64,000 nucleotides of DNA, taken from assembly GCA_963801475.1 (NCBI GenBank), contig CAWDEX010000002.1:115873-179872 (forward strand). Reading direction: 5' to 3'. A program made the position numbers and the translations under genes. The stretch comes from an uncultured Acidobacteriota bacterium. GTDB taxonomy: Bacteria > Acidobacteriota > Thermoanaerobaculia > UBA5066. This document shows positions 2,615 through 63,978 of the stretch, piece after piece (the stretch's first letter is position 1; each line of letters opens with the position of its first letter). The notes beneath the pieces are model-generated. The model was not told the origin of the DNA. It saw only the letters and a list, made by a program, of their open reading frames with translations, and searched no databases.

Positions 2615-3427
2615 TCAGGGCGACGCCGCGGCGCCGGCGAAGAGAAGCTGGACGGCCATCCCGGGGCGCATCAGCTTCCTGGGATCCCGCTTGACGCGGA
2701 CCACGACCTGGACCGAGCCGCTTCCGGGGTCGAGGACGGGGCTGACGAACGAAACTCGCCCGGTCGAGCGCGCCTCGGGCAGCTCCTTCGAGACGACCGT
2801 GACCTCCTGCCCGACCTTCACCTTCAGGAGAGCCGGGCCCGGCACGTAGGCCCGGGCCAGGAGCGGCTCGAGCGCGACGACCTTGAAGAGCGGCTTGTTC
2901 TCCTCGAGGAGGACCTTCTCGCCGACCTTGGCGAAACGGTCCGCGACGACGCCGTCGAACGGCGCGCGGACGATCGAGCGGTCGATCACGAGCTGGGCGC
3001 GCTCGAACTCCACGCGAGCCAGCTCGTAGCGGCTCCGCTTCTGCTCGAGCTCGGCCTGGCTGCAGAGGTTCTGGCGGAAGAGCTCCTCGTAGCGCTTGTA
3101 ATCGGCCCGGCTGACGTTCAGCGTCTCCTCCGCCGCCCGGAGGTCGAGGCGGAACTCCCTCTGGTCGATCGTGGCCAGCGGCTGGTTCTTCTGGACCGCG
3201 TCACCCCGCTCGACCTGGAGGCCGTCGATGACGCCCGTCACGCGCGTCGTGACGTTCACTTCCTGGTCCACGACGAGGGTGGCCGCCGCCGCGAGCGGCG
3301 CATCGGCCGGCAGGGGATGCCCGGCCGCGCCGATCGCCGTGACGAGGACGGTCGAAAGGGCCGCGACGGACACCGAAACGCGTGCGCTCGTATCGAACCT
3401 CCGGGATCGGCTCTTTGCCGACATCAT
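2615..3427 (-). CDS. HlyD-family / membrane-fusion (periplasmic adaptor)-like protein, 270 aa, N-terminal membrane anchor
   Basis: This is the C-terminal part of artefactual ORF 2615..6136, starting at MMSAKS. It has a TM anchor, a coiled-coil hairpin (REFRLDLRAAEETL...ELEQKRSRYELARVEFERAQ) and a beta-barrel/lipoyl-like C-terminus typical of HlyD_3. It lies 12 nt upstream of the kinase. Confidence 0.6.
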   Translation of the reverse strand: MMSAKSRSRRFDTSARVSVSVAALSTVLVTAIGAAGHPLPADAPLAAAATLVVDQEVNVTTRVTGVIDGLQVERGDAVQKNQPLATIDQREFRLDLRAAEETLNVSRADYKRYEELFRQNLCSQAELEQKRSRYELARVEFERAQLVIDRSIVRAPFDGVVADRFAKVGEKVLLEENKPLFKVVALEPLLARAYVPGPALLKVKVGQEVTVVSKELPEARSTGRVSFVSPVLDPGSGSVQVVVRVKRDPRKLMRPGMAVQLLFAGAAASP

Positions 3428-3444
3428 ACCGAAGCGGGACGGCT

Positions 3445-4521
3445 TCAAACCTTCCAGTACCACCCCTTCTTCTCGAAGACGAGAAGGACGCCGTACCAGA
3501 AGAGGACCGTGGCGAGGGCGAAGGCGTGCGACCGGAGGGTTGGGTCGCCGATGGCGGAGAAGCCTCCGTAGAGGAACCGGTGGAGGTTCGTCGCCTTCCC
3601 GTCCGCAGCCGTCCACGTCACGAGGCCGAGGATCTTGGCGAGGAGGCCGGAGCCGACGAAGGCAACGAGGGGATTCCGGCCGTACGTGAAGAAGAACCCG
3701 TTCGGGCCGAGCCAGCCGCGGAGGTCGACGGCGACGATCGAGAGGGCCAGCCCCACGCACGCAGAGCCCGACGTGAAGAGGACGTACGAGCCGGTCCAGA
3801 GATTCTTGTTGATCGGGATCCGGAGGTTCCAGAGGAGACCCGCCGCGAGGCCCGCCGCCCCCCAGACGAAGAGCCGCGCCGCCGCTTCCCGGAGACCGGG
3901 GGCCGACTTGCCCTCCCCCTTCCGCGTCAGGACGAAGCCCGCCAGCGTTCCGGTCAGCATCGTGGCGACCGACGTCAGCGTCGAGACGATCCCCTCGGGG
4001 TCCCACTCCTTCTTCCAGAGGTGCCCCCGGAGGAGAGCGAGGTCCACCGCCTTCTGGATGTTCCCCTCCGGTGTCAGGTCGAAGCCGAGTCCCGTCAGGA
4101 GGAACGTGTGGAGCGCCAGAAGGAGGCCCGTCGCCACCCAGAGCCCCGGCACCCTCCGCTTCCAGACCGCGAGGATCAGGAGCGTGCCGAGGACGTAGAC
4201 CACCCCGATTCTCGGCAGGACGCCGGGGATGCGTAGTCGGGCGAGGCGCTCCAGCGTGAAGGGGAACCACGCCATGGCCCAGCCGACGAGGACGATCGTC
4301 ATGCCGCGCGTGACGGCGTGACGGGCGAGGGCGGCGCGCGTGGCGCCGCGGTCCATCCGTTTCGTCAGCGAGAAGACCCCCGCCGTCCCGACGATGAAGA
4401 GGAAGAACGGGAAGATGAGATCCGTCGGCGTCCATCCGTGCCACTCCGCGTGGCCGAAGGGGGGGTAGAGATGCCCCCAGTCGCCGGGGTTGTTGACGAA
4501 GATCATGCCGGCCACGGTCAA
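3445..4521 (-). CDS. Polytopic membrane protein, DUF5009/DUF1624-like (heparan-alpha-glucosaminide N-acetyltransferase-like acyltransferase family)
   Basis: About 10 predicted TM helices and Trp/Phe-rich loops. Family assignment is by overall pattern only. Confidence 0.4.
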   Translation of the reverse strand: MTVAGMIFVNNPGDWGHLYPPFGHAEWHGWTPTDLIFPFFLFIVGTAGVFSLTKRMDRGATRAALARHAVTRGMTIVLVGWAMAWFPFTLERLARLRIPGVLPRIGVVYVLGTLLILAVWKRRVPGLWVATGLLLALHTFLLTGLGFDLTPEGNIQKAVDLALLRGHLWKKEWDPEGIVSTLTSVATMLTGTLAGFVLTRKGEGKSAPGLREAAARLFVWGAAGLAAGLLWNLRIPINKNLWTGSYVLFTSGSACVGLALSIVAVDLRGWLGPNGFFFTYGRNPLVAFVGSGLLAKILGLVTWTAADGKATNLHRFLYGGFSAIGDPTLRSHAFALATVLFWYGVLLVFEKKGWYWKV

Positions 4522-4639
4522 CCCGCGGAAGAAGTCGAGCGAGGCGAAGCGGCCGGGAGGCGGGCCGGGACTCTCTTCGGTGGCGATGCGGCGATGGTAT
4601 CAACGCGCGCGGCGGCCGGCCGGTGGCAAGATCCGGCCG

Positions 4640-6232
4640 ATGGCCCGGACCACGTCCCGCCTCGCCCTCGCCGCGACCGTGGCGCTCTTCGGCCTCTCGG
4701 CCTGCACCATCATCCCGACGGGCCTGACCGTCTCGCCTCCGGACGACGCCGTGGCGCGTCGGGTCGCGAGGATCGCCTCGAAGACACCGGCCCGCCTCGG
4801 CATCGTGGCGCTCCACGTCGAGAGCGGGCGGCGTCTGTCCTGGAACGAGACGGAGAGCTTCGAGGCGGCGAGCGTCATCAAGATCGCCCTCATCGCCGAG
4901 GCCGCCGCCGAGTGGCGGGAGGCCCGCTTCGACCCCAACGACCGGTGGAGGCTGACCGCGGCGTCGAAGGCCGCGGGCTCCGGGATCCTCGGCGAGTTCG
5001 ATCCGGGCCTCATGCCGACGAACCGGGATCTTCTCCGGATCATGATCTCGCTCTCGGACAACACGGCCGCGAACAGCTTCATCGACCGCTTCGGCCCCGG
5101 GGCGGTGAACCGCCGGATGGCGGAGCTCGGGCTCCCCGGAATCCGGCTCATCGGTCGGATTCCCGACGCCGACAAGGAGCCGGAGCGCTGGTCGCCGCTC
5201 GGCCGGATCACCCCCGAGGACACGGCGGAGTACTTCCGACGCCTCTTCGCCGGGACGCTCGTCGACCCGTCCGCGGACTACTTCATGCGGGAGATCTTCC
5301 GGACGCAGCGGACGAAGAACCGGGTCCCGCGCCTCCTCCTCGGGCCAAAGGAGAACCGCTGGGCCGGAAAGACGGGCTCGATGACCGGGATGCGGGGGGA
5401 CGCCGGCGTCCTGACGACGAGGAAAGGGACTTTCGTCCTCGTCGTTCTGGCCGACCGGATCCCGGACGACGACCGGGACGGCTCCGCCGTCACGAGGGCC
5501 ATGGGCGACCTCGCCAAAGCCATCGTGGACGGCTGGTCCGCGACGCTCCCGGACGCGCCCGTCCCTCCGGACGTCAAGCCCGCGCCGACCCTGATGACGG
5601 CCCTGCCCCGGTCGGAGCTGACGCTTCGCGAGGCACGCGCCCGGACAGACGACCCGCTCCTCTTCCGCGTCTTCCGCGACGAGGACCGGCGCTTCTGGCA
5701 GCTCTGGGAGGAAGCCGGCGGGTCGCCCGACGACGCCTGTCTCGTCGCCATGCCCAACTCGTGGTGGGAGGGGTACGGCGCCTCCAAGATCGAGCCTGTC
5801 TCGGCGCTCGTCATTCATCACACCTCCCAGGAGACCGACGAGGAGTGCCTCTCGCTCTTCGCGAAGCCCGAGAGCCAGGTCTCCTCCCACTTCCTCGTCG
5901 GACGCGACGGACGGCTCTGGCAGTTCGTCTCCCTCGAGCACCGGGCGTGGCACGCCGGGCCGTCGCTCCTCCACGGCCGGATCGCCCTGAACCGGACCTC
6001 GATCGGCGTGGAGATCACCGGGGACGGGAACCGGGCCCCCTTCACGGCGGCGCAGGTCGAGACCGTCGTCCGGCTCGTCGGCGTCCTGACGGCCCAGTAC
6101 GGTCTCCAGGCTCCCTGGATCGTCGGCCACGAGCACATTGCCCCGGACCGGAAGAACGATCCGGGGGCCCTCTTTCCCTGGAACGACGTCCTTCGGCGCT
6201 CTCTGACGCTGGCGCGGACGCTCTCGCGGTGA
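4640..6232 (+). CDS. Lipoprotein fusion: N-terminal class A beta-lactamase-like (penicillin-binding fold) domain + C-terminal N-acetylmuramoyl-L-alanine amidase (Amidase_2 / AmpD-PGRP type)
   Basis: Start at MARTTSRLALAATVALFGLSAC (lipobox LSAC), which is M51 of ORF 4490..6232. N-domain motifs are SVIK (SxxK), SDN and KTG, with no ExxLN omega loop. C-domain motifs are HHTS...SSHFLVGRDGRLWQ...AWHAG...IGVEITG...GHEHIAPDRKNDPG, the AmpD zinc-amidase signature. Confidence 0.7.
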   Translation: MARTTSRLALAATVALFGLSACTIIPTGLTVSPPDDAVARRVARIASKTPARLGIVALHVESGRRLSWNETESFEAASVIKIALIAEAAAEWREARFDPNDRWRLTAASKAAGSGILGEFDPGLMPTNRDLLRIMISLSDNTAANSFIDRFGPGAVNRRMAELGLPGIRLIGRIPDADKEPERWSPLGRITPEDTAEYFRRLFAGTLVDPSADYFMREIFRTQRTKNRVPRLLLGPKENRWAGKTGSMTGMRGDAGVLTTRKGTFVLVVLADRIPDDDRDGSAVTRAMGDLAKAIVDGWSATLPDAPVPPDVKPAPTLMTALPRSELTLREARARTDDPLLFRVFRDEDRRFWQLWEEAGGSPDDACLVAMPNSWWEGYGASKIEPVSALVIHHTSQETDEECLSLFAKPESQVSSHFLVGRDGRLWQFVSLEHRAWHAGPSLLHGRIALNRTSIGVEITGDGNRAPFTAAQVETVVRLVGVLTAQYGLQAPWIVGHEHIAPDRKNDPGALFPWNDVLRRSLTLARTLSR

Positions 6233-6258: not shown

Positions 6259-7119
6259 ATGCTCGACGGCCTCCGGCGCCTCGACGATGCGGGCACGGCT
6301 CGCCATTTCCTCGAGCGGCTGCGGGAAGGGATCTACGTCTCGACGCCCGCCGGCGAGATCCTCGACGCGAACCCCGCCTTTCTCGCCATCCTCGGGGCCC
6401 GGACGCTCGAAGAACTCCGGGCGTCGAAGGCAGCGAACTGGCTCGCCGAGCCCGCCCAGCGCGATCGGTGGAAGGAGAGCCTCGACCGGTTCGGATCGGT
6501 CGTCGACTTCGAGCTGAAGGTCCGGCGCCGCGACGGGGAGATCCGCGTCGTCCTCGACACGGCCTGGACGCGCGTGGACCCCGAGTCGGGCGACGTCTAC
6601 TACCACGGGATCCTCACCGACGTGACCGACCGGAAAGAGCTGGAGACGGCGCTCGACGAGCAGGCGCTCCGCGATCCGATCACCGGCTGCTACAACCGCC
6701 GCTACCTCTCGCAGGCGACCCGGGAAGAGCCGCCGCGGGGCTGCGTCGTCGTCGAGGTCGACCGGTCGAAGGCGGAAGAAGCCCTTCCGGACGACGGGTC
6801 GCCCGACCCGGTCGCGAACCGGATCAGCCGCTTCCTGATGCGCCAGTCGCGGGCCGAGACGACGCTCGTGAGGATGCACTCGAACGAGTTTCTCCTTCTC
6901 CTGCGCGAGGCGGACGACAAGACGGTCGCCAACGTCATCGAGCGCCTCGCCTTCTCGGCCTCGCGCGAGCTTCTCCCGCCGTTTTCCGTCGGCGGGTCGA
7001 CCCGCGAGGAGAGCGAGCCCCTGACCGAGGCGATCCGGCGGGCGCGGGAGAACCGGACGGAGGTTTCGTCGGCCACCGGACCCGGCCGCAAACCGTCCGG
7101 CATCTACCCGCTCCCCTGA
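6259..7119 (+). CDS. PAS-domain protein with a degenerate GGDEF domain (GGDEF replaced by HSNEF; likely non-catalytic)
   Basis: This is the C-terminal part of ORF 4318..7119, starting at MLDGLRRL. The PAS core LREGIYVSTPAGEILDANPAFLAILG is paralogous to the 10604 gene. RxxD-like and LMRQ motifs are retained but the GGDEF motif is replaced by HSNEF. Confidence 0.7.
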   Translation: MLDGLRRLDDAGTARHFLERLREGIYVSTPAGEILDANPAFLAILGARTLEELRASKAANWLAEPAQRDRWKESLDRFGSVVDFELKVRRRDGEIRVVLDTAWTRVDPESGDVYYHGILTDVTDRKELETALDEQALRDPITGCYNRRYLSQATREEPPRGCVVVEVDRSKAEEALPDDGSPDPVANRISRFLMRQSRAETTLVRMHSNEFLLLLREADDKTVANVIERLAFSASRELLPPFSVGGSTREESEPLTEAIRRARENRTEVSSATGPGRKPSGIYPLP

Positions 7120-7120
7120 C

Positions 7121-9433
7121 GTGACCGACGCCCGGAGCCCCGGCGACGCCGGGTCGTCGCCCGGCGTGACGCCGGTCCTCCCGGTCCGTCTCTGCCTCGG
7201 GCTCGTCTCCTTCGCGCTCGCCGCCTACCAGATCGCCCTGACGCGGGTCTCGTCCGTCCTCGTCTACACGCAGACGACCTTTCTCGTCCTCTCCGTCTCG
7301 ATTGCCGCCATCGGCGTCGGTGCCGCCGCGGTTCACTGGTGGAGGGCGCGCCCGGGACGGTCGGTCACGCCCGCCCAGATCCGGCGCTTCGCCCTTCTGA
7401 CCGGCCTCTCGGCCGCGCTGGCCTGGGTGCTCGTGGTCCGGGCGAAGGTCGCTTTCGAAGCCGGCGTCTTCGCTCTCCCCTTCCTCTTCGCCGGTGCCTG
7501 CCTGGCGACCGCCTACGTCTGGATCGGCGGGCGCGCCTCGCTGACCTACGCTTTCGAGCTGGCGGGAGGGGCGGCCGGCGTGGCCACCGCGCTGCTCCTT
7601 CTCCCCGAGATCGGCGACGTCAACACCGGGCTCGTCGCGGCCAGCCTGGCCGGCCTCGCGGCGCTCCCGCTCTCCGCCGCCGGGTTCCGCGCGGTGCCCG
7701 GCCTCGTCGCAGCGGCGCCGGCGGCCCTGCTCCTCGTGAACCTGGCCGTCCCCGGCGGCGTCCTCGTCGTCGACCCGTACGCCGTCGTGACGTTCGAGCC
7801 GCACCTCGTCTGGCAGACGGGGCCGCACCACGGTCGCGTCACGGCCACGGCGTACGACGACTTCGCCCGCACCGATCTCGTGGAGACGGACGAGCCCTGG
7901 GTGAGGTACCTCTACACCGACCGGATGTACACCGCCCGCGTCGTCCGCTGGGACGGACGCTCGCCCCGCTTCGATGACCCCGAGCCCGAGCGGCTGGCGG
8001 CCTTGAAGGCCCTCCCGTTCCGCCGCGGCGCGCCGAAGAAGGTCCTGGTCCTCGGCGCCGGTGGCGGCTTCGACGTGGCGCTGGCCCTCCAGGGGGGTGC
8101 GACGGACGTGACGGCCGTCGAGATCAACCGCGCGACGATCCGCTTCACGCGCGGTCTGGCCGATTTCTCCGGCCGGATCTACGACCGGAGTGACGTCCGG
8201 GTCATCCGGGCGGACGCACGGCGCTTTCTCAGGGACTCCGCGGAGCGGTACGAACTGATCGAGCTGTCGCTCCTGCAGAACGACCCGTCGGAAGGGCGCA
8301 GCAACGTCGCCCGCCAGAACTGGGTCTTCACCGTCGAGGCGATGGAGGCCTACCTCGAGCATCTCGCTCCGGGCGGGGCCATCGCCGTCGTGCAGAACGG
8401 CGAGGAGCTGGCCGACAAGACCGTCGCGACGGCGCTCGAAGCCTTCCGGCGCCTCGGCCTCGCGGAGATGGCGGCGATGAGGGGGTTCCTGATCCTGACG
8501 TCGGGCGCCTCGGACGAGAACCCCTTCTCCGACCTCGTCCTGATCTGGAGAGAACCCGTGCCGTCCGGGCGCGTGTCACAGCTTCTTGCCGGCGCCGGAC
8601 CCGGAATCAAGGTGCGCTTCGCTCCCGGAGGGCCGGCGGCCGAGCCTTTCCGGAGCCTCGCATCCGGCGAGACGACGCTGGCCTCCTGGGTTGCACGGAG
8701 TGGAGCGGACCTGACCCCTGCGACGGACGAGTCGCCCTTCTTCTTCAACCTCGAGCGAAACGCGGGGTCGGGGTGGGTCCGGCTCGGCGAAGCCTGTCTC
8801 GTTTTCGTCGCCCTGCTCGCGGCCGCCGACACGCTTCGTCGGCGCGAGGGCGCCGGCCGCCTTCCCCTGCCGGGGTGGGGGGCGGGCGCCGCTCTCGGCC
8901 TCGGATTCATCTTCCTGCAGGCCGGGCTGATCCACCGCGCCCATTTCCTCCTCGGCAATCCGACGCTCGCGGTCGCGCTCGGCGTCGGCGGCATGTTCGT
9001 CTTCGGAAGCCTCGGTGCGCTCCTCGCCGTGCGGTTCCAGAGCCTCGCCGCCTCATGGCGGCTTGCCCTCCTCGCGGCGGCGACGGCCGCGGCCCTCGTC
9101 GAGTCGGCGAGTCGATGGGAGCGCGTCTCCGGCGCCTCCGCCGGCAAGGGAGACGCCGCCCTCCTCCTCGCGCTCGCCGGCCTCTTCGTGCTGCCCACGA
9201 TCGCCGCGGGCGCCTGCTTCCCCGCCGTGATCGAGCGCTGGGCCGGACCGAGACAGCGGGCGGCGGCGGCCGTCTACGCGGCGGACGGCCTCGCCTCGGT
9301 GGCGGGCGGGGCGCTCGCGGCGGTCGCGGCGCTCCATTTCGGCATCCGCAGCCTCTTCGTCGCCGCGATCACCTGCTACGTGCTCTGCGCCCTCCTCGCC
9401 CTCGTCCCGGGGCGCCGGCCCGTCACGCCCTGA
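7121..9433 (+). CDS. Polytopic membrane protein with an internal spermidine/spermine-synthase-like (aminopropyltransferase/MTase-fold) domain
   Basis: N- and C-terminal multi-TM regions. The central domain carries VLVLGAGGGFDVALAL...DVTAVEIN (Rossmann-like SAM/dcSAM site). Overlaps the previous stop by 1 nt. Confidence 0.55.
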   Translation: MTDARSPGDAGSSPGVTPVLPVRLCLGLVSFALAAYQIALTRVSSVLVYTQTTFLVLSVSIAAIGVGAAAVHWWRARPGRSVTPAQIRRFALLTGLSAALAWVLVVRAKVAFEAGVFALPFLFAGACLATAYVWIGGRASLTYAFELAGGAAGVATALLLLPEIGDVNTGLVAASLAGLAALPLSAAGFRAVPGLVAAAPAALLLVNLAVPGGVLVVDPYAVVTFEPHLVWQTGPHHGRVTATAYDDFARTDLVETDEPWVRYLYTDRMYTARVVRWDGRSPRFDDPEPERLAALKALPFRRGAPKKVLVLGAGGGFDVALALQGGATDVTAVEINRATIRFTRGLADFSGRIYDRSDVRVIRADARRFLRDSAERYELIELSLLQNDPSEGRSNVARQNWVFTVEAMEAYLEHLAPGGAIAVVQNGEELADKTVATALEAFRRLGLAEMAAMRGFLILTSGASDENPFSDLVLIWREPVPSGRVSQLLAGAGPGIKVRFAPGGPAAEPFRSLASGETTLASWVARSGADLTPATDESPFFFNLERNAGSGWVRLGEACLVFVALLAAADTLRRREGAGRLPLPGWGAGAALGLGFIFLQAGLIHRAHFLLGNPTLAVALGVGGMFVFGSLGALLAVRFQSLAASWRLALLAAATAAALVESASRWERVSGASAGKGDAALLLALAGLFVLPTIAAGACFPAVIERWAGPRQRAAAAVYAADGLASVAGGALAAVAALHFGIRSLFVAAITCYVLCALLALVPGRRPVTP

Positions 9434-10562
9434 CCACCCCGAGCCCCGGGCCCTTCGGCTCCTGCCACACTCCCTCCACGATCGCCAGGCCCTTGAAGGG
9501 ATCGTTCGAGATGAGGAGGTTCCCGTCGAGGTCGAGCCAGTCGTAGAGCGGCGCCACGGCGACGCCGGCCGCGATGCCGAGCGACGACTCGATCATGCAG
9601 CCGAGCATCAGCTTGAAGCCGAGAGCGCGCCCGAGGGCCGCCATCTCGTAGGCCCTCGTGATCCCCCCGCACTTGGCGAGCTTGACGTTGATTCCGTCGA
9701 AGAGCCCGGCGAGCGACGGGACGTCCCCCGGGTGGAGGACCGACTCGTCCGCGACGAGCGGGAGCGGCGACGCGGCCTTCACCGCCCCCATCGCCGCGTT
9801 CTTCGACGCGGGCATCGGCTGCTCCACGAACTCGATTCCCATCGTGGCGAGCCACTTGATCCGCGAGATCGCCTCCTCGGGCGTCTGCCATCCCTCGTTG
9901 GCGTCGACGCGGATCGGCTTGCCCGTCACCGCCCGGATGGCCCGGACGTTCTGCTCGTCGGTCGGGAGCCCGACCTTCACCTTCAGCGACGGGTACCTCT
10001 CTCCTTCCTTCACCTTCTGCTGCATGACCTCGGGACTGTCGATGCCGATCGTGAAGGTCGTCACCGCCATCCGGTTCGCCGGCACCCCGAGGAGGCGGTG
10101 AACGGGGACGCCGAGCTTCTTCCCCTTCCAGTCCCAGAGGGCCATGTCCAGCGCCGCCACGATCTGCGAATCGGCGCCCGCCTCCTTCTCGGCCCGCTCG
10201 AGCCAGGCGAGGTGCTCCCACGGCGCAAGCCCCTCGACGGCCTTCTTCACGCGGGCGAAGGCCGCCTCGCCCGAATCCCAGCTCTGGCCGTAACGGACGT
10301 TCGCCGCCGCCTCGCCCAGGCCGGTGACGCCGTCCGCCGTGAACGTGACGAGGCCGTTCTTCTTCTCGGTCGACGAGTTGCGGGAAATGGTCCAGGTGTG
10401 CGTCAGCTTCAGCTCGAGCGGCGAGAGAGAGAGGGCCGGCTTTCCGGCCGACGGCGCGGTCGCGGCGGCCTGCGAGGCGAGGGCGGCTTCGGGGAGAAAG
10501 GCCCCGGTCGCCAGCGCGGCGGAGCCCCGGAGGAGGGAGCGGCGGGAGAGGTCGCCCGGCAT
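9423..10562 (-). CDS. Enolase-superfamily dipeptide epimerase (L-Ala-D/L-Glu epimerase-like, MR/MLE family) with a twin-arginine (Tat) signal peptide
   Basis: N-terminus SRRSLLRGSAALATGAF...ALA. MR_MLE motifs KVKVG, VDANEGW, and a KxK/D/E/D metal-site pattern. The convergent 3' end overlaps gene 7121..9433 by 11 nt. Confidence 0.75.
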   Translation of the reverse strand: MPGDLSRRSLLRGSAALATGAFLPEAALASQAAATAPSAGKPALSLSPLELKLTHTWTISRNSSTEKKNGLVTFTADGVTGLGEAAANVRYGQSWDSGEAAFARVKKAVEGLAPWEHLAWLERAEKEAGADSQIVAALDMALWDWKGKKLGVPVHRLLGVPANRMAVTTFTIGIDSPEVMQQKVKEGERYPSLKVKVGLPTDEQNVRAIRAVTGKPIRVDANEGWQTPEEAISRIKWLATMGIEFVEQPMPASKNAAMGAVKAASPLPLVADESVLHPGDVPSLAGLFDGINVKLAKCGGITRAYEMAALGRALGFKLMLGCMIESSLGIAAGVAVAPLYDWLDLDGNLLISNDPFKGLAIVEGVWQEPKGPGLGVVRA

Positions 10563-10603: not shown

Positions 10604-11461
10604 GTGACTTCCTCCCTGTCGCTCGAGGATCCGGAGAATCTCCGGCGCTTCGTCCGTTCGCTCCGCGAGGGGATCTACGTTTCGACGCCGGACGGGCGGG
10701 TCCTCGAAGGGAACCCGGCGTTCTTCCGGATGTTCGGGGTTTCCTCGCTCGAGGAGCTGGGGCGCGTGCCCGACGTCCTCGTGGACCCCGCCGCGCGCGA
10801 GCGCGAGCTCGAACTGCTGGCCCACGACGGGGTCGTGAGGGATTTCGAGTTCCAGATCCGGCGGAAGGACGGCGAGATCCGGACGGTCATCGACACCTGC
10901 TACGTCTGCGGCGACGCCGCCACCGGCGAGAAGTTCTTCCACGGCATCCTGATCGACATCACGGACCGCAAACGCCTCGAGGAGCAGCTGCGCGACCAGA
11001 TCCTCCGTGATCCGCTGACCGGCTCCTTCAACCGCCGTTTTCTCGCCCAGTTCGCGGCGGCGCACGATCCGATCGGCGGCACCTGGGGCTGCATCATGGT
11101 CGACGTGGACGGCTTCAAGCTCTACAACGACCGGTTCGGGCACGCCGCCGGCGACGCCGTCCTGACGAAGCTCTCGCGCTTCCTGATGCGCCAGACCCGG
11201 GCCGAGGAGGTCGTCGTCCGGATGGGCGGCGACGAGTTCCTCGTCATCCTTCCCGGCGCCGACGACACCGGGACGGAGAACGTCGTCGGCCGCCTGAAGA
11301 CCGAAGCCGAGGCGGAGCGGCTCGTTCCCTTCTCGATGGGCTGGGCCACCCGCGCGGAGCGAGAGCCCCTGGAGCGGACGATCATGCGGGCCGACCGGCG
11401 GATGATCAGCGTGAAGAACGAGACCTCCGGGACCGTCGGCCTCCCGCGCCGCCGGGACTGA
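10604..11461 (+). CDS. PAS-GGDEF diguanylate cyclase (intact GGDEF)
   Basis: PAS motif LREGIYVSTPDGRVLEGNPAFFRMFG. A-site RMGGDEFLVILPG. I-site-like RxxD. Paralog of 6259..7119. Confidence 0.8.
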   Translation: MTSSLSLEDPENLRRFVRSLREGIYVSTPDGRVLEGNPAFFRMFGVSSLEELGRVPDVLVDPAARERELELLAHDGVVRDFEFQIRRKDGEIRTVIDTCYVCGDAATGEKFFHGILIDITDRKRLEEQLRDQILRDPLTGSFNRRFLAQFAAAHDPIGGTWGCIMVDVDGFKLYNDRFGHAAGDAVLTKLSRFLMRQTRAEEVVVRMGGDEFLVILPGADDTGTENVVGRLKTEAEAERLVPFSMGWATRAEREPLERTIMRADRRMISVKNETSGTVGLPRRRD

Positions 11462-11498: not shown

Positions 11499-13307
11499 AT
11501 GCGCCGCGCCCTCCGCGCCCTTCCGCTCGCCGCCTTCCTCGTCCCCCTTCGCCTCGCCGCCCTCCCGCCCGAGGCGCCGTCCGCCGCCGCGCTCTCACCC
11601 GCCGTCGTCACGGCCGCGATCGAGAACCTCTATGCCCGGCCCGACGAGACGGGTCCCGTCGACTCGCAGGCGATCCTCGGCGACCGGGTCGAGGTGCTGG
11701 AGCAGACCGCCGGCTTCGCGAGGGCCCGGACCGCGGACGGCAACATCGCATGGATTCCCGAGCGCTCGATCCTCCGACGCGATGTCCCTCCCGCCGCCGG
11801 CGCGAAGGTCGCTCGCGTCACGTCGAACTTCGCACACGTCTACTCGTCCCCCTCCTTCACCAGGACGCGTCCGCTCCTCACCGCCCCGGTCGGGGCCCGA
11901 TTGGCTTATTCGGGGTTCCTGGAAGCCAAGGAGGGCGATTCCTGTTCGTGGGTCCGCGTGGCCCTGCCCGACGGGCGCGACGGGTTCGTCGCCGCCCGCG
12001 ACGTGGCGCTCCTGCCCTTCGACGAGATTCCCCCGCTTCGGTCTCCCGACGCCTGGATCGCCTTCGGCAAGCGCTTCCTCGGCGCGCCGTACACGTGGGG
12101 CGGGACGACGCCCGCCGGATTCGACTGCTCGGGCCTGATCCAGCGGATCTTCTCGGAACATGGCGTGACGCTGAGGCGCAACAGCTACGAACAGGCGTTC
12201 CAGGATCCGCAGCTCGTCCCGGTCGCCGCCGAGACCCTTCGCCCCGGCGATCTCCTCTTCTTCGGGACGGAGGACAGGATCGATCACGAGGCGATGTGGC
12301 TGGGGGACGGGACGGTCCTCCAGGCCACACGCCACAACGTCCCGGGCGTGCAGATCACCCCCTTCGACAGCCCGTTCCTGAAGCCCGTCTTCCGGTACGC
12401 CCGGAGATTGAAGAGCTCTTCAAAGAAAAGTCCGGCGCCCGGCCTCACCCCGGCGAAGTCGCGCGGCCTCGAGGCCGTCCTTCGGGGGATCGCGGCTTCG
12501 AGCGGCGCCCGCTTCGGCATCGTCGTCAAGGACCTGACCACCGGCCAGTCCCTCTCCCTGAATCCGTCTCTCAGCATGCACGCCGCGAGCACCATGAAGA
12601 CGCCGGTGATGCTCGAGGTGCTTCGACGCGTGGATGAAGGATCCCTGAAGCTGTCGGACGAGCTGCTCGTGAAGAACGAGTTCCGGTCGGTCGTCGACGG
12701 GTCGACCTTCTCGATCGGGGCCGACGGCCTCGACCCCGAGGACGAAGGGCCCACGCTGGCGCTGCTCGGGAAGAGCGCATCGCTCGAGTTCCTCGTGAAG
12801 GAGATGATCGTCCGATCCTCGAACCTCGCGACGAACGTCGTCCTCTCGTTCGTCGGCCCGGAGGCCGTCCAGAGGTTCATGGACGCCCTCGGCGCTCCGA
12901 CGGTGAAGGTCCGCCGGTGCGTGGAGGACTCGAAGGCCTACGAGAAGGGGCTCAACAACGAGACAGACGCCGCCGGGATGGGCGCCGTCATGGAGGCGGC
13001 CGTGAGGTCGCCGAAGCTGTCGGCTGCTTCGAGAGCGAAGGCCTGGGAGATCCTGACGGGACAGGTGTTCAACGAGCAGATTCCGGCAGGGCTCCACCCG
13101 CAATCGGGGGCCGTCGTCGGCCACAAGACGGGGTCGATCTCCTCCGTGCAGCATGACGCGGCCGTGGTCCGCCTTCCCGACGGACGGGAATACGTCCTCG
13201 TCATCCTCGCGAACGACTTTGGCGCGAACGAGACCGGGCGGGGGCGCGTCGTCGAGGCGTCGCGGAAGATCTCCCGCGCGGTGTGGGAGGCGATGATCGC
13301 TCCCTGA
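11499..13307 (+). CDS. Secreted multidomain cell-wall hydrolase: 2x SH3b + NlpC/P60 (CHAP-like Cys peptidase) + C-terminal class A beta-lactamase-like domain
   Basis: Signal peptide present. NlpC/P60 motifs YTWGGTTPAGFDCSGLIQRIF ... H. C-domain motifs STMKT (SxxK), SSN, EKGLNNE (E166/N170-like omega loop) and HKTGS (KTG). Confidence 0.75.
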   Translation: MRRALRALPLAAFLVPLRLAALPPEAPSAAALSPAVVTAAIENLYARPDETGPVDSQAILGDRVEVLEQTAGFARARTADGNIAWIPERSILRRDVPPAAGAKVARVTSNFAHVYSSPSFTRTRPLLTAPVGARLAYSGFLEAKEGDSCSWVRVALPDGRDGFVAARDVALLPFDEIPPLRSPDAWIAFGKRFLGAPYTWGGTTPAGFDCSGLIQRIFSEHGVTLRRNSYEQAFQDPQLVPVAAETLRPGDLLFFGTEDRIDHEAMWLGDGTVLQATRHNVPGVQITPFDSPFLKPVFRYARRLKSSSKKSPAPGLTPAKSRGLEAVLRGIAASSGARFGIVVKDLTTGQSLSLNPSLSMHAASTMKTPVMLEVLRRVDEGSLKLSDELLVKNEFRSVVDGSTFSIGADGLDPEDEGPTLALLGKSASLEFLVKEMIVRSSNLATNVVLSFVGPEAVQRFMDALGAPTVKVRRCVEDSKAYEKGLNNETDAAGMGAVMEAAVRSPKLSAASRAKAWEILTGQVFNEQIPAGLHPQSGAVVGHKTGSISSVQHDAAVVRLPDGREYVLVILANDFGANETGRGRVVEASRKISRAVWEAMIAP

Positions 13308-63906: not shown

Positions 63907-63978
63907 CTGGGGGGCAGGGATTCGAACCCCGATAGCCAGATCCAGAGTCTGGAGTCCTACCGTTGGACGACCCCCCAG
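63905..63978 (-). tRNA. tRNA-Gln (anticodon CTG)
   Basis: The rc folds as a cloverleaf. Acceptor stem tgggggg/cccccca with discriminator G and CCA. D-arm gtcc...ggac. Anticodon loop ctCTGga. T-arm GGTTCGAATCC. Confidence 0.8.

Follow-up and report, generated by a model that had tools for sequence, protein, structure and literature searches.

In discussions of the transition from penicillin-binding proteins (PBPs) to beta-lactamases, proteins that have the class A beta-lactamase fold and lack Glu166 are treated as relics of that step. The examples characterized so far are cyanobacterial PBP-A and metagenomic LRA-5, neither of which has a known physiological context. PBP-A (Tll2115) from Thermosynechococcus elongatus (PDB 2j7v) was established by experiment to be both a DD-carboxypeptidase and a DD-endopeptidase, its beta-lactamase activity rises 90-fold when a Glu is introduced at the 166-equivalent position, and it is described as restricted to cyanobacteria (PMC11189452). 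LRA-5 (PDB 8eo5), a class A “precursor” from a soil metagenome, carries Val166 and confers no resistance until the Y69Q/V166E changes are made (PMC12777564).

A second group of relevant proteins consists of zinc amidases that act on the MurNAc-L-Ala bond. AmpD (PDB 1j3g, 2y28) is a stand-alone, cytoplasmic 1,6-anhydro-MurNAc-L-Ala amidase. Escherichia coli AmiD (PDB 2bh7/3d2z) and Pseudomonas aeruginosa AmpDh2 (PDB 4bj4) are periplasmic lipoproteins. Finally, Xu et al. (2015) proposed that Bacteroides thetaiotaomicron recycles peptidoglycan in the periplasm. Specifically, BT1087, a fusion of an alpha/beta-hydrolase and an AmiA amidase, is followed by the YkfC enzyme BT1314 and the YkfB-like epimerase BT1313 (PMC4600125).

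Here, we describe an acidobacterial gene that joins a class A beta-lactamase fold to a zinc amidase. The gene lies at 4640..6232 (plus strand) of the window, that is, the whole 64,000-nucleotide stretch of DNA that was analyzed, and specifies 530 amino acids: a lipoprotein signal, a class-A-like (PBP-A-like) serine peptidase domain, a linker, and an Amidase_2 domain. The list of open reading frames contains a single frame here (4490..6232, plus strand), and initiation at the ATG at 4640 gives the 530-residue product. GC3 is 0.93, similar to that of the adjoining genes, there is no frameshift, and a homolog search returned more than 100 full-length proteins with the identical two-domain architecture. 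The AF2 model of the full-length protein has a pLDDT of 84 and a pTM of 0.80. An earlier sequence-only reading had proposed one gene encoding two fused domains, and the single reading frame with Pfam matches to Beta-lactamase2 and Amidase_2 bears this out; all of the motifs that it named (the lipobox, SVIK, SDN, KTG, EPERWSP, and the amidase residues) are present. The option that it raised against itself, a frameshift joining two separate genes, is ruled out in the window by the single frame and the uniform GC3. The analysis thus confirms that the gene is real and intact and that its product is a predicted membrane-anchored, periplasmic protein with a class-A-like peptidase domain and a zinc amidase. 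A long antisense frame that overlaps the gene (2615..6136, 1173 amino acids) is a high-GC artifact, of which only the 3′ part, approximately 2615-3379, is real and belongs to an HlyD-like gene. The only Rfam match in the window is a tRNA at 63907-63977; none lies near the gene.

The novelty is a new pairing of already known domains, not new parts. Among 1.84 billion representatives, the Beta-lactamase2 plus Amidase_2 fusion occurs in only two clusters, both limited to Thermoanaerobaculia/Holophagales MAGs, and none of the ten multi-stretch or long matches scanned from that search joins the two domains. Our literature searches on Acidobacteria and AmpD fusions, on PF13354 with PF01510, and on YkfC, beta-lactamase, and epimerase combinations found no description of the architecture.

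The protein begins with a signal peptide and lipobox (4640..4705, plus strand; MARTTSRLALAATVALFGLSAC). Specifically, a basic n-region and a hydrophobic h-region precede L19-S20-A21-C22, which matches the pattern [LVI][ASTVI][GAS]C and makes Cys22 the lipidated mature N-terminus. Every one of the 77 homologs whose sequence reaches the N-terminus has the Cys, within the pattern [L][AST][SAG]C, and so the earlier assignment of the protein as a lipoprotein stands.

The N-terminal domain (amino acids ~30-300; 4727..5539, plus strand) matches Pfam Beta-lactamase2 (PF13354) over residues 54-270. The score is 166.2 bits (gathering cut-off 22; E 8.9e-49), and the match runs through profile positions 1-213 of 214; in three dimensions, the domain has the fold of the class A beta-lactamase superfamily. 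The class A motifs Ser70-x-x-Lys73, Ser130-Asp-Asn132, and Lys234-Thr/Ser-Gly236 are all present. Conservation was counted in 104 aligned sequences, the query and 103 homologs. The nucleophile Ser and general-base Lys of S78-V-I-K81 (4871..4882, plus strand) are each kept in 103/104; S139-D140-N141 (5054..5062, plus strand) is kept in 104, 103, and 103; and in K244-T245-G246 on the beta3 strand (5369..5377, plus strand), the Lys, the Thr/Ser, and the Gly are each found in 103/104. A glutaminase or another non-penicillin-binding family, which the sequence-only reading had named as the finding that would overturn its assignment, is ruled out: Pfam and NCBIfam return only Beta-lactamase2 and class A families in this region, and the SxxK Ser is conserved in all but one sequence.

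The domain departs from class A beta-lactamases in the omega loop, the equivalent of which spans G172-L187 (5153..5200, plus strand). Three MAFFT modes align TEM-1 E166 with PBP-A L158, LRA-5 V166, and I174 of the acidobacterial protein, two phmmer pairwise alignments likewise put I174 at position 166, and the published equivalences of PBP-A L158 and LRA-5 V166 were recovered as alignment controls. Thus, I174-P-D-A-D178 replaces ExxLN. Of the 104 sequences, 101 have Ile at position 166, position 170 (Asp178 here) is variable, and the surrounding G-R-I-P motif is nearly invariant (101-103/104). A short helix at 177-179 in the AF2 model corresponds to the TEM 169-171 helix. The protein therefore shares with PBP-A the combination of a class A fold and a position 166 that is not acidic. 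These alignments uphold the earlier description of a class-A-like domain that has SxxK, SDN, and KTG and lacks Glu166 and Asn170, and they correct one detail of it: EPERWSP had been read as the local omega-loop sequence in place of ExxLN, whereas the equivalent of Glu166 is Ile174 in G-R-I-P, and E180-P186, which includes E180-P-E-R-W184, sits in the second half of the loop.

Two other candidates for position 166 were considered. E180 of KEPERW was ruled out as the Glu166 equivalent, since it aligns to TEM position 172 and is not invariant (E in 75/104 and D in 10/104, with A, G, or Q among the rest). When hhalign compared the family profile with TEM-1 alone, S185 fell at position 166 by way of an 11-residue insertion. 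We discount this alignment because the three MAFFT modes and both phmmer alignments give I174 and recover the PBP-A and LRA-5 equivalences; it likewise offers no conserved Glu.

The acylation set is intact (S78, K81, S139, N141, and K244-T-G), Ile174 stands in place of Glu166, and there is no Asn170, a combination that makes a penicillin-binding DD-peptidase resembling PBP-A the most likely identity of the N-domain. Such an enzyme would act as a carboxypeptidase on terminal D-Ala and/or as an endopeptidase on 4-3 cross-links, and with beta-lactams it would be expected to form a long-lived acyl-enzyme instead of hydrolyzing them. The sequence-only reading had favored a PBP-like protein over a resistance enzyme, and that preference fits the closest characterized relatives, which have Leu (PBP-A) or Val (LRA-5, inactive until V166E) where the acidobacterial protein has Ile174. 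There are differences as well. Identity to PBP-A is 21-25% (phmmer E 1e-13), so the two do not qualify as orthologs or close relatives, and substrate specificity, be it for DD or LD bonds or as a carboxy- or endopeptidase, is not confidently transferable. PBP-A is a stand-alone protein with a shorter omega loop, whereas in the acidobacterial protein, a lipoprotein, the domain with predicted DD-activity is joined to an amidase. LRA-5 has Tyr69 where the acidobacterial protein has Ala77. The closest structural relative, a far closer match than PBP-A, is the uncharacterized Sphaerobacter thermophilus protein 4ewf; both it and LRA-5 are single-domain proteins, and in the data examined here, no link to a peptidoglycan hydrolase gene was seen for either.

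Position 180 is often acidic (E/D in 85/104), and this residue could serve as an alternative deacylation base, which counts against the proposed peptidase function. If it did, the N-domain would be a genuine beta-lactamase that protects the cell, and the amidase would act independently. Compatible with that idea are the class A fold, the complete acylation motifs, and the label “beta-lactamase class A” that JGI applies to many homologs. We nonetheless regard it as very improbable: Ile occupies position 166 almost throughout and position 170 varies, E180 is itself replaced in some homologs, the domain scores 86.3 bits against the 200-bit cut-off of the NCBIfam bla_class_A equivalog, the nearest characterized proteins in which position 166 is hydrophobic do not function as beta-lactamases, and the genomic context is one of peptidoglycan-peptide metabolism, not resistance.

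A Pro-rich linker (amino acids 301-325; 5540..5614, plus strand), variable in the alignment and devoid of secondary structure in the AF2 model, connects the N-domain to the amidase half. This half opens with a conserved helical extension (amino acids 326-385; 5615..5794, plus strand; pLDDT 86-96) in which R343, V344, D349, F352, W353, G360, G361, C367, L368, P372, and W376 are invariant. On its own, the 88-residue linker/extension segment matches nothing in Pfam with the threshold relaxed to E<=10, and the extension has no separate structural match in Foldseek. The amidase domain itself (amino acids 386-520; 5795..6199, plus strand) matches Pfam Amidase_2 (PF01510) over residues 386-509 (E 1.8e-32), scoring 112.9 bits where the gathering cut-off is 26. 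The zinc ligands H393, H497, and D507, the catalytic E458, and K505 are each kept in 103-104 of the 104 sequences, and a His pair, H393/H394, is present.

The best PDB sequence matches of the amidase are AmiD (1.9e-21) and AmpDh2 (3.4e-21), followed by AmpD (1.7e-18), and the zinc triad, the Glu, and the Lys of the first two align with its own. Specifically, H393 aligns with the His of L-V-I-H-Y-T in AmiD, E458 with the Glu of S-I-G-I-E, and G-H...R-K-x-D-P-G is also aligned. In a Foldseek search with the C-terminal model (pLDDT 79), AmpD is the top match (1e-8, 31-34% identity, with the same fold and catalytic residues), followed by AmiD, AmpDh2, endolysin amidases, and PGRPs; TM scores are only 0.5-0.6, in part owing to the N-terminal extension and to low-confidence loops. 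A complete zinc amidase of the AmpD/PGRP fold, as first read from the sequence, is thus present. The label “AmpD-type” that came with it is valid at the level of fold and family only, because the AmpD equivalog NF008758 of NCBIfam is missed (115.7 bits versus 143, with only profile positions 73-180 matched). Unlike cytoplasmic, stand-alone AmpD, the acidobacterial amidase belongs to a fusion with a lipoprotein signal, and anhydro-MurNAc specificity cannot be inferred from the likeness. The view that an exported, fused form is unusual likewise holds in part: exported, lipid-anchored Amidase_2 proteins are nothing out of the ordinary, as AmiD and AmpDh2 illustrate, whereas the fusion partner is unusual. 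In AmiD and AmpDh2, a further domain follows the amidase at the C-terminus, whereas the acidobacterial protein ends ~10 residues past it and has instead the conserved 60-residue N-terminal extension and the Beta-lactamase2 domain.

The surrounding genes look built for dismantling cell-wall peptides outside the cytoplasm. The order NagX-like gene, fusion gene, (PAS-GGDEF), Tat-epimerase, SH3-P60-Bla2 is conserved at ~45 loci in Thermoanaerobaculia and Holophagales. An HGSNAT/NagX-like transmembrane acetyltransferase (3445..4521, minus strand; NCBIfam NagX 124 bits, below the cut-off of 480, with HGSNAT_cat, PF07786, found on its orthologs) is upstream of and divergent from the fusion gene in nearly all of 47 related loci and directly adjacent in most. 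A syntenic, Tat-exported enolase-superfamily epimerase/racemase (9423..10562, minus strand; Pfam MR_MLE_N/C and TAT_signal) resembles L-Ala-D/L-Glu epimerases and N-acyl-D-Glu racemases, scoring under both NCBIfam cut-offs (DgcA 234 bits, AEE 158 bits); all 38 orthologs have the twin-arginine motif. Finally, a gene that is syntenic in most loci (11499..13307, plus strand) encodes two SH3b domains, an NlpC/P60 domain like that of the gamma-D-Glu-diamino-acid endopeptidase YkfC, and a Beta-lactamase2 domain (Pfam). Its best PDB match is BcYkfC (3h41, 9e-25), and its Beta-lactamase2 domain shares only 25% identity with the N-domain of the amidase fusion. It lacks the Tyr/Asp pair that ties true YkfC enzymes to a free N-terminal L-Ala and thus would have no strict need for an upstream amidase.

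Taken together, sequence and synteny favor, at a probability of roughly 60%, a bifunctional, Cys22-anchored periplasmic peptidoglycan hydrolase in which a PBP-like peptidase and a MurNAc-L-Ala amidase feed extracytoplasmic stem-peptide salvage. The amidase, with zinc held by H393, H497, and D507, E458 as catalytic base, and K505 in a stabilizing role, would free the stem peptide from MurNAc in muropeptides or sacculus strands. Jointly, the two domains would turn cross-linked or pentapeptide/tetrapeptide muropeptides into stem peptides that are both trimmed and free. Next, the gamma-D-Glu-diamino acid bond would be cleaved by the YkfC-like NlpC/P60-Bla2 fusion, and the Tat-exported epimerase would then handle the L-Ala-D-Glu or N-acyl-D-Glu product, every step taking place outside the cytoplasm. 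The pathway could serve turnover and salvage of the cell's own wall or foraging on foreign peptidoglycan; its DD-peptidase activity, the order of its steps, and its physiological role are inferred from these data.

The same architecture could also carry another stem-peptide specificity, for example, that of an LD-carboxypeptidase that removes D-Ala4 in place of LdcA/YkfA, or one for a non-canonical acidobacterial stem peptide. The Bacillus subtilis ykfABCD model needs tetrapeptide-to-tripeptide trimming. The Bacteroides model needs this step as well (PMC4600125). Among the conserved neighbors surveyed, no LdcA/YkfA-type gene was seen, although LdcA could sit elsewhere in the genome; moreover, both hydrolases of the cluster bear a Beta-lactamase2 domain, and identity to PBP-A is low (21-25%). 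Nevertheless, all characterized SxxK acyl-serine transferases of the class A fold act on D-Ala-D-Ala-type (DD) bonds or on beta-lactams, and we know of no LD-carboxypeptidase with this fold. We consider such a specificity unlikely.

Some close relatives encode Bla2-only lipoproteins at the same locus. These proteins terminate within or just past the linker, and the amidase half has been lost outright, not split off as a separate gene. Given that this loss occurred repeatedly, the coupling of peptidase and amidase is dispensable, and the persistence of the Bla2-only forms suggests that the N-domain is autonomous. Their persistence without an amidase to regulate also argues against a ligand-binding or regulatory N-domain, which would recognize beta-lactams or muropeptides ending in D-Ala-D-Ala and, without turning them over, target or gate the amidase in the manner of the class-A-like regulatory protein BlaB. 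Such a role is improbable on further grounds: a pure binding module would not be expected to keep the full catalytic set of Ser, Lys, SDN, and KTG in 103/104 sequences, and the protein has no transmembrane or signaling domain, the PAS-GGDEF neighbor being a distinct protein in which no export signal was detected. The suggestion in the sequence-only reading that the domain might be a sensor finds no support for the same reason, and the neighbors are peptidoglycan-peptide enzymes.

The preferred reading, a salvage hydrolase, has its nearest counterpart in the BT1087 system, itself part of a proposed pathway. Both fuse a serine hydrolase (in BT1087, a proposed D-Ala trimmer) to a MurNAc-L-Ala amidase, and both would operate with homologous YkfC-type endopeptidase and YkfB-type epimerase components outside the cytoplasm. 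The domains that make up the two fusions share no homology (an alpha/beta hydrolase in BT1087 and a class A fold here; an NlpC/P60-type amidase in BT1087 and a zinc Amidase_2 here), so the domain combination would be convergent.

We speculate, tentatively, that Thermoanaerobaculia and Holophagales possess a complete extracytoplasmic stem-peptide pathway in which class-A-fold domains, one lacking a Glu166-like residue and the other having it, serve as native peptidases fused to an amidase and to a gamma-D-Glu endopeptidase, and in which the Tat-epimerase and the transmembrane, acetyl-CoA-dependent acetyltransferase finish the process in the periplasm. If so, these domains would be present-day, non-cyanobacterial examples of the peptidoglycan-processing PBPs ancestral to class A beta-lactamases, and the fold might exhibit a new specificity, such as LD-carboxypeptidase activity. 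The covalent tie to a peptidoglycan amidase and the conserved cluster of stem-peptide enzymes provide a concrete, testable hypothesis for the native substrate of a Glu166-less domain. They also caution against annotating such genes as resistance determinants: soil resistome surveys that depend on labels like those of JGI could count homologs of the fusion as resistance genes. Finally, the locus points to a periplasmic route of peptidoglycan-peptide salvage in Acidobacteria, parallel to that proposed for Bacteroides and built from non-homologous fusion domains.

The fusion protein is encoded by a single open frame (window 4490..6232, +, in the ORF list). Translation from the ATG at 4640, the start chosen in the sequence-only reading, gives a 530-aa protein, and the sole effect of an alternative in-frame ATG at 4586 is a longer n-region of the signal peptide. 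The gene has no frameshift, and its GC3, 0.93, equals that of the real neighbouring genes. In Pfam, residues 54-270 match Beta-lactamase2 (Bla2; PF13354, E 8.9e-49) and residues 386-509 match Amidase_2 (PF01510, E 1.8e-32), with no competing family for either half in the Pfam scan. Thus, the earlier claim of a two-domain fusion made by one intact gene holds, and every motif that accompanied it is found in its place: the lipobox LSAC (19-22, with predicted lipidation at Cys22); SVIK (78-81), SDN (139-141), EPERWSP (180-186), and KTG (244-246) in the N-domain; and the amidase residues HH393-394...E458...H497...K505-x-D507 in the C-domain. A Pro-rich linker (301-325) lies between the two domains. 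Ahead of the amidase core is a conserved, confidently modelled helical extension of 60 residues (326-385; window 5615-5794, +), eleven of which are invariant (R343, V344, D349, F352, W353, G360, G361, C367, L368, P372, and W376). Neither Pfam nor structural comparison gives a match for the extension on its own.

The fusion is widely conserved within a narrow group of bacteria. Specifically, a search of a 5.8-billion-sequence collection returns more than 100 full-length proteins with both Pfam domains, at 46-94% identity, whose named sources are Acidobacteriota, Thermoanaerobaculia, or Holophagales MAGs. Across 104 aligned sequences (the query and 103 homologs), S78, K81, S139, D140, N141, K244, T/S245, and G246 of the N-domain and H393, H394, E458, H497, K505, and D507 of the amidase are kept in 103-104, and every one of the 77 that reach the N-terminus has the lipobox Cys. 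When one genome per GTDB species is scanned, the fusion occurs in ~47 species, all of them MAGs of Thermoanaerobaculia, Holophagales, or unclassified Acidobacteriota, bar one "Gammaproteobacteria" record; all other matches are to Amidase_2 genes that stand alone, in Proteobacteria. Searched exhaustively with HMMER, 1.84 billion 50%-identity representatives include just two clusters with the full-length fusion (P0061 and P0115), and none of ten other long or multi-stretch matches scanned from this search combines Bla2 with Amidase_2. Given this distribution and residue conservation, the architecture is real, under selection, and restricted to one clade.

By sequence, the solved structure closest to the N-domain is 4ewf, an uncharacterised protein of Sphaerobacter thermophilus (E 5e-28, ~31% identity), followed by PBP-A (Tll2115) of Thermosynechococcus (E 1e-13) and LRA-5 (E 8e-13). 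True beta-lactamases match at E 1e-10 or weaker, and the NCBI class A equivalog model scores 86 bits against a cut-off of 200. The identity of the residue at position 166, the deacylating Glu of true class A enzymes, is central here. In phmmer pairwise alignments, Ile174 lies opposite the residue that distinguishes wild-type PBP-A from its L158E mutant (2j7v versus 2j9o) and LRA-5 from its V166E mutant (8eo5 versus 8eo7). We also aligned reconstructed PBP-A and LRA-5 sequences, TEM-1, and twelve members of the family, using two published equivalences as positive controls: in PBP-A, a glutamate was put "in the structurally aligned position" (PMC11189452), and residue 166 of LRA-5 is Val (PMC12777564). 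All three MAFFT modes equate TEM E166 with PBP-A L158, LRA-5 V166, and Ile174, and TEM N170 with Asp178; in the AF2 secondary structure, residues 177-179 form a short helix at the place of the 169-171 helix of TEM. The G-R-I-P motif containing Ile174 is kept in 101-103 of the 104 sequences, whereas position 180, the first Glu of "EPERW," has Glu in just 75 and Asp in another 10. Aligned to TEM-1 alone, hhalign gives another local solution, with S185 at position 166; that position is likewise variable, so no alignment gives a conserved Glu at 166. The proposed absence of an omega-loop Glu is therefore correct, and its place is refined from EPERWSP to Ile174. We consider it very improbable that the domain is a true beta-lactamase using an alternative base.

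The characterized relatives suggest an activity. PBP-A is a demonstrated DD-carboxypeptidase and DD-endopeptidase; Glu at its 166-equivalent raises beta-lactamase activity 90-fold, to a level still five orders of magnitude under natural enzymes (PMC11189452). Wild-type LRA-5, which is without a deacylating water, confers MICs equal to those of control strains, and some beta-lactams are hydrolysed only by its Y69Q/V166E double mutant (PMC12777564). By analogy, and at no more than 21-25% identity to PBP-A, we infer that D-Ala-D-Ala-type substrates and beta-lactams would acylate the N-domain and that it would not be a resistance enzyme. At that identity, a different peptidase specificity, for example that of an LD-carboxypeptidase, is an outside possibility. 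Less likely again is a binding or regulatory domain, the "sensor" of the sequence-only reading, in a family that keeps the SxxK, SDN, and KTG residues almost without exception.

The C-domain is closest in the PDB to E. coli AmiD (1.9e-21), P. aeruginosa AmpDh2 (3.4e-21), and AmpD (1.7e-18). In sequence alignment, H393 pairs with the His of AmiD L-V-I-H-Y-T, E458 with the Glu of S-I-G-I-E, and G-H497...R-K505-x-D507-P-G with A-H...R-K-D-D-P-G. A separate AF2 model of residues 318-530 (pLDDT 79) matches AmpD (E 1e-8), AmiD, AmpDh2, phage endolysin amidases, and PGRPs. The NCBI AmpD equivalog scores 115.7 bits against a threshold of 143, and the domain is a member of the amidase family rather than an ortholog of AmpD. 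Both AmiD and AmpDh2 are lipoproteins that are exported, so export, earlier singled out as unusual, is not; the unusual feature is the amidase's partner domain.

Close relatives carry Bla2-only lipoproteins at the same locus (L080 3350-4309; L081 4099-5058; L082 4053-5009; L083 1324-2280), of 311-336 aa and 62-81% identical over the N-domain. In the two genes checked (318-319 aa), a PAS gene begins 38-52 bp downstream. In an NJ tree the Bla2-only forms are interspersed with fused ones, in at least two nested lineages, so the amidase half has disappeared on more than one occasion. The Bla2 domain thus seems able to work autonomously, with the fusion probably advantageous but dispensable.

A tblastn comparison of the genes around the fusion gene with 47 related loci reveals a conserved order: an HGSNAT/NagX-like gene (-), the fusion gene (+), usually one PAS-GGDEF gene (+), an epimerase (-), and P60-Bla2 (+). 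The first (PF07786/DUF1624; window 3445-4521, -) encodes a transmembrane acetyltransferase and is upstream and divergent of the fusion gene in nearly all related loci, adjoining it in most. Its candidate substrates are GlcN of de-N-acetylated muropeptides and the amino group of D-Glu or of a peptide ahead of a DgcA-like racemase. A 1173-aa antisense ORF that overlaps the fusion gene (2615-6136, -) is a high-GC artefact; its sole real gene is the 3' end (~2615-3379, HlyD/RND-adaptor-like), after which come a histidine kinase and a sigma-54 response regulator (556-2603). Downstream, a PAS gene with a degenerate GGDEF site, "SNEF" (6259-7119, +), and a 770-aa polytopic membrane protein with a weak spermidine-synthase-like domain (7121-9433, +) constitute an insertion (6259-9433) relative to most related loci, which have a single PAS-GGDEF gene between fusion gene and epimerase; most Holophagales-type loci have none. 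A paralog of that PAS gene retaining GGDEF lies at 10604-11461 (+). The sole Rfam match in the window is a tRNA gene (63907-63977, -). At several nanopore-derived loci (L043-L047) the fusion gene is in pieces, likely through assembly frameshifts. Locus L046 (CAWDOO010000004.1), from a MAG titled "uncultured Gammaproteobacteria bacterium," has the same acidobacterial cluster, including NagX, epimerase, and P60-Bla2, and its contig is probably mislabelled or mis-binned.

The epimerase (9423-10562, -) is an enolase-superfamily protein resembling dipeptide epimerases and N-acyl-D-Glu racemases; its top models, N-acetyl-D-Glu racemase DgcA and L-Ala-D/L-Glu epimerase, both score under cut-off. Since all 38 syntenic orthologs carry a twin-arginine signal, it is predicted to act outside the cytoplasm. 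Tat export this consistent is unexpected in an enolase-superfamily epimerase. P60-Bla2 (11499-13307, +) comprises a signal peptide, two SH3b domains, NlpC/P60, and a C-terminal class-A-like Bla2. It is closest to B. cereus YkfC (3h41, 9e-25) and also to Bacteroides YkfCs, all of them gamma-D-Glu-diamino-acid endopeptidases in peptidoglycan recycling (PMC4600125, PMC2954226). The YkfC specificity Asp is Asn in 34 of 34 sequences (Asn228), and the Tyr is E, S, T, or N, replacements like those of the lysin DvLysin. With both residues replaced, the enzyme may also cut MurNAc-linked peptides and may have no strict need of an upstream amidase. Its Bla2 (STMK, SSN, KTG, and [E/D/Q]-x-G-x-[N/S]-N resembling ExxLN) is only 25% identical to the fusion N-domain; the two modules are old paralogs and may serve different jobs.

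We favour, at a probability of about 0.6, a periplasmic mechanism with four steps. The fusion protein would be exported and lipidated at Cys22; its Zn amidase would free stem peptides from muropeptides or glycan strands in the periplasm; the PBP-like domain would take off terminal D-Ala and/or open 4-3 cross-links; and the released peptides would go first to the P60-Bla2 endopeptidase and next to the epimerase. The purpose could be own-wall turnover or scavenging of foreign peptidoglycan. As a whole, the gene set parallels a pathway proposed for B. thetaiotaomicron (PMC4600125): in BT1087, a serine hydrolase that would remove D-Ala is joined to a MurNAc-L-Ala amidase, and the products would go to YkfC and a YkfB-like epimerase in the periplasm, before import. 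The YkfC-type and epimerase components are homologous, but the acidobacterial fusion shares no homologous domain with BT1087; the likeness in domain combination would thus be functional and convergent.

Each domain is well known by itself, as are exported Amidase_2 lipoproteins and class-A-like PBPs that lack Glu166, and the fusion protein is not a categorically new system. What is new is the Bla2-Amidase_2 fusion, of which our literature searches found no description, its conserved partnership with P60-Bla2 and a Tat-exported epimerase, and the presence of PBP-A-like proteins in a defined peptidoglycan-processing context outside cyanobacteria. The family calls for caution in resistome annotation and is a good starting point for finding what "pre-beta-lactamase" proteins do natively.
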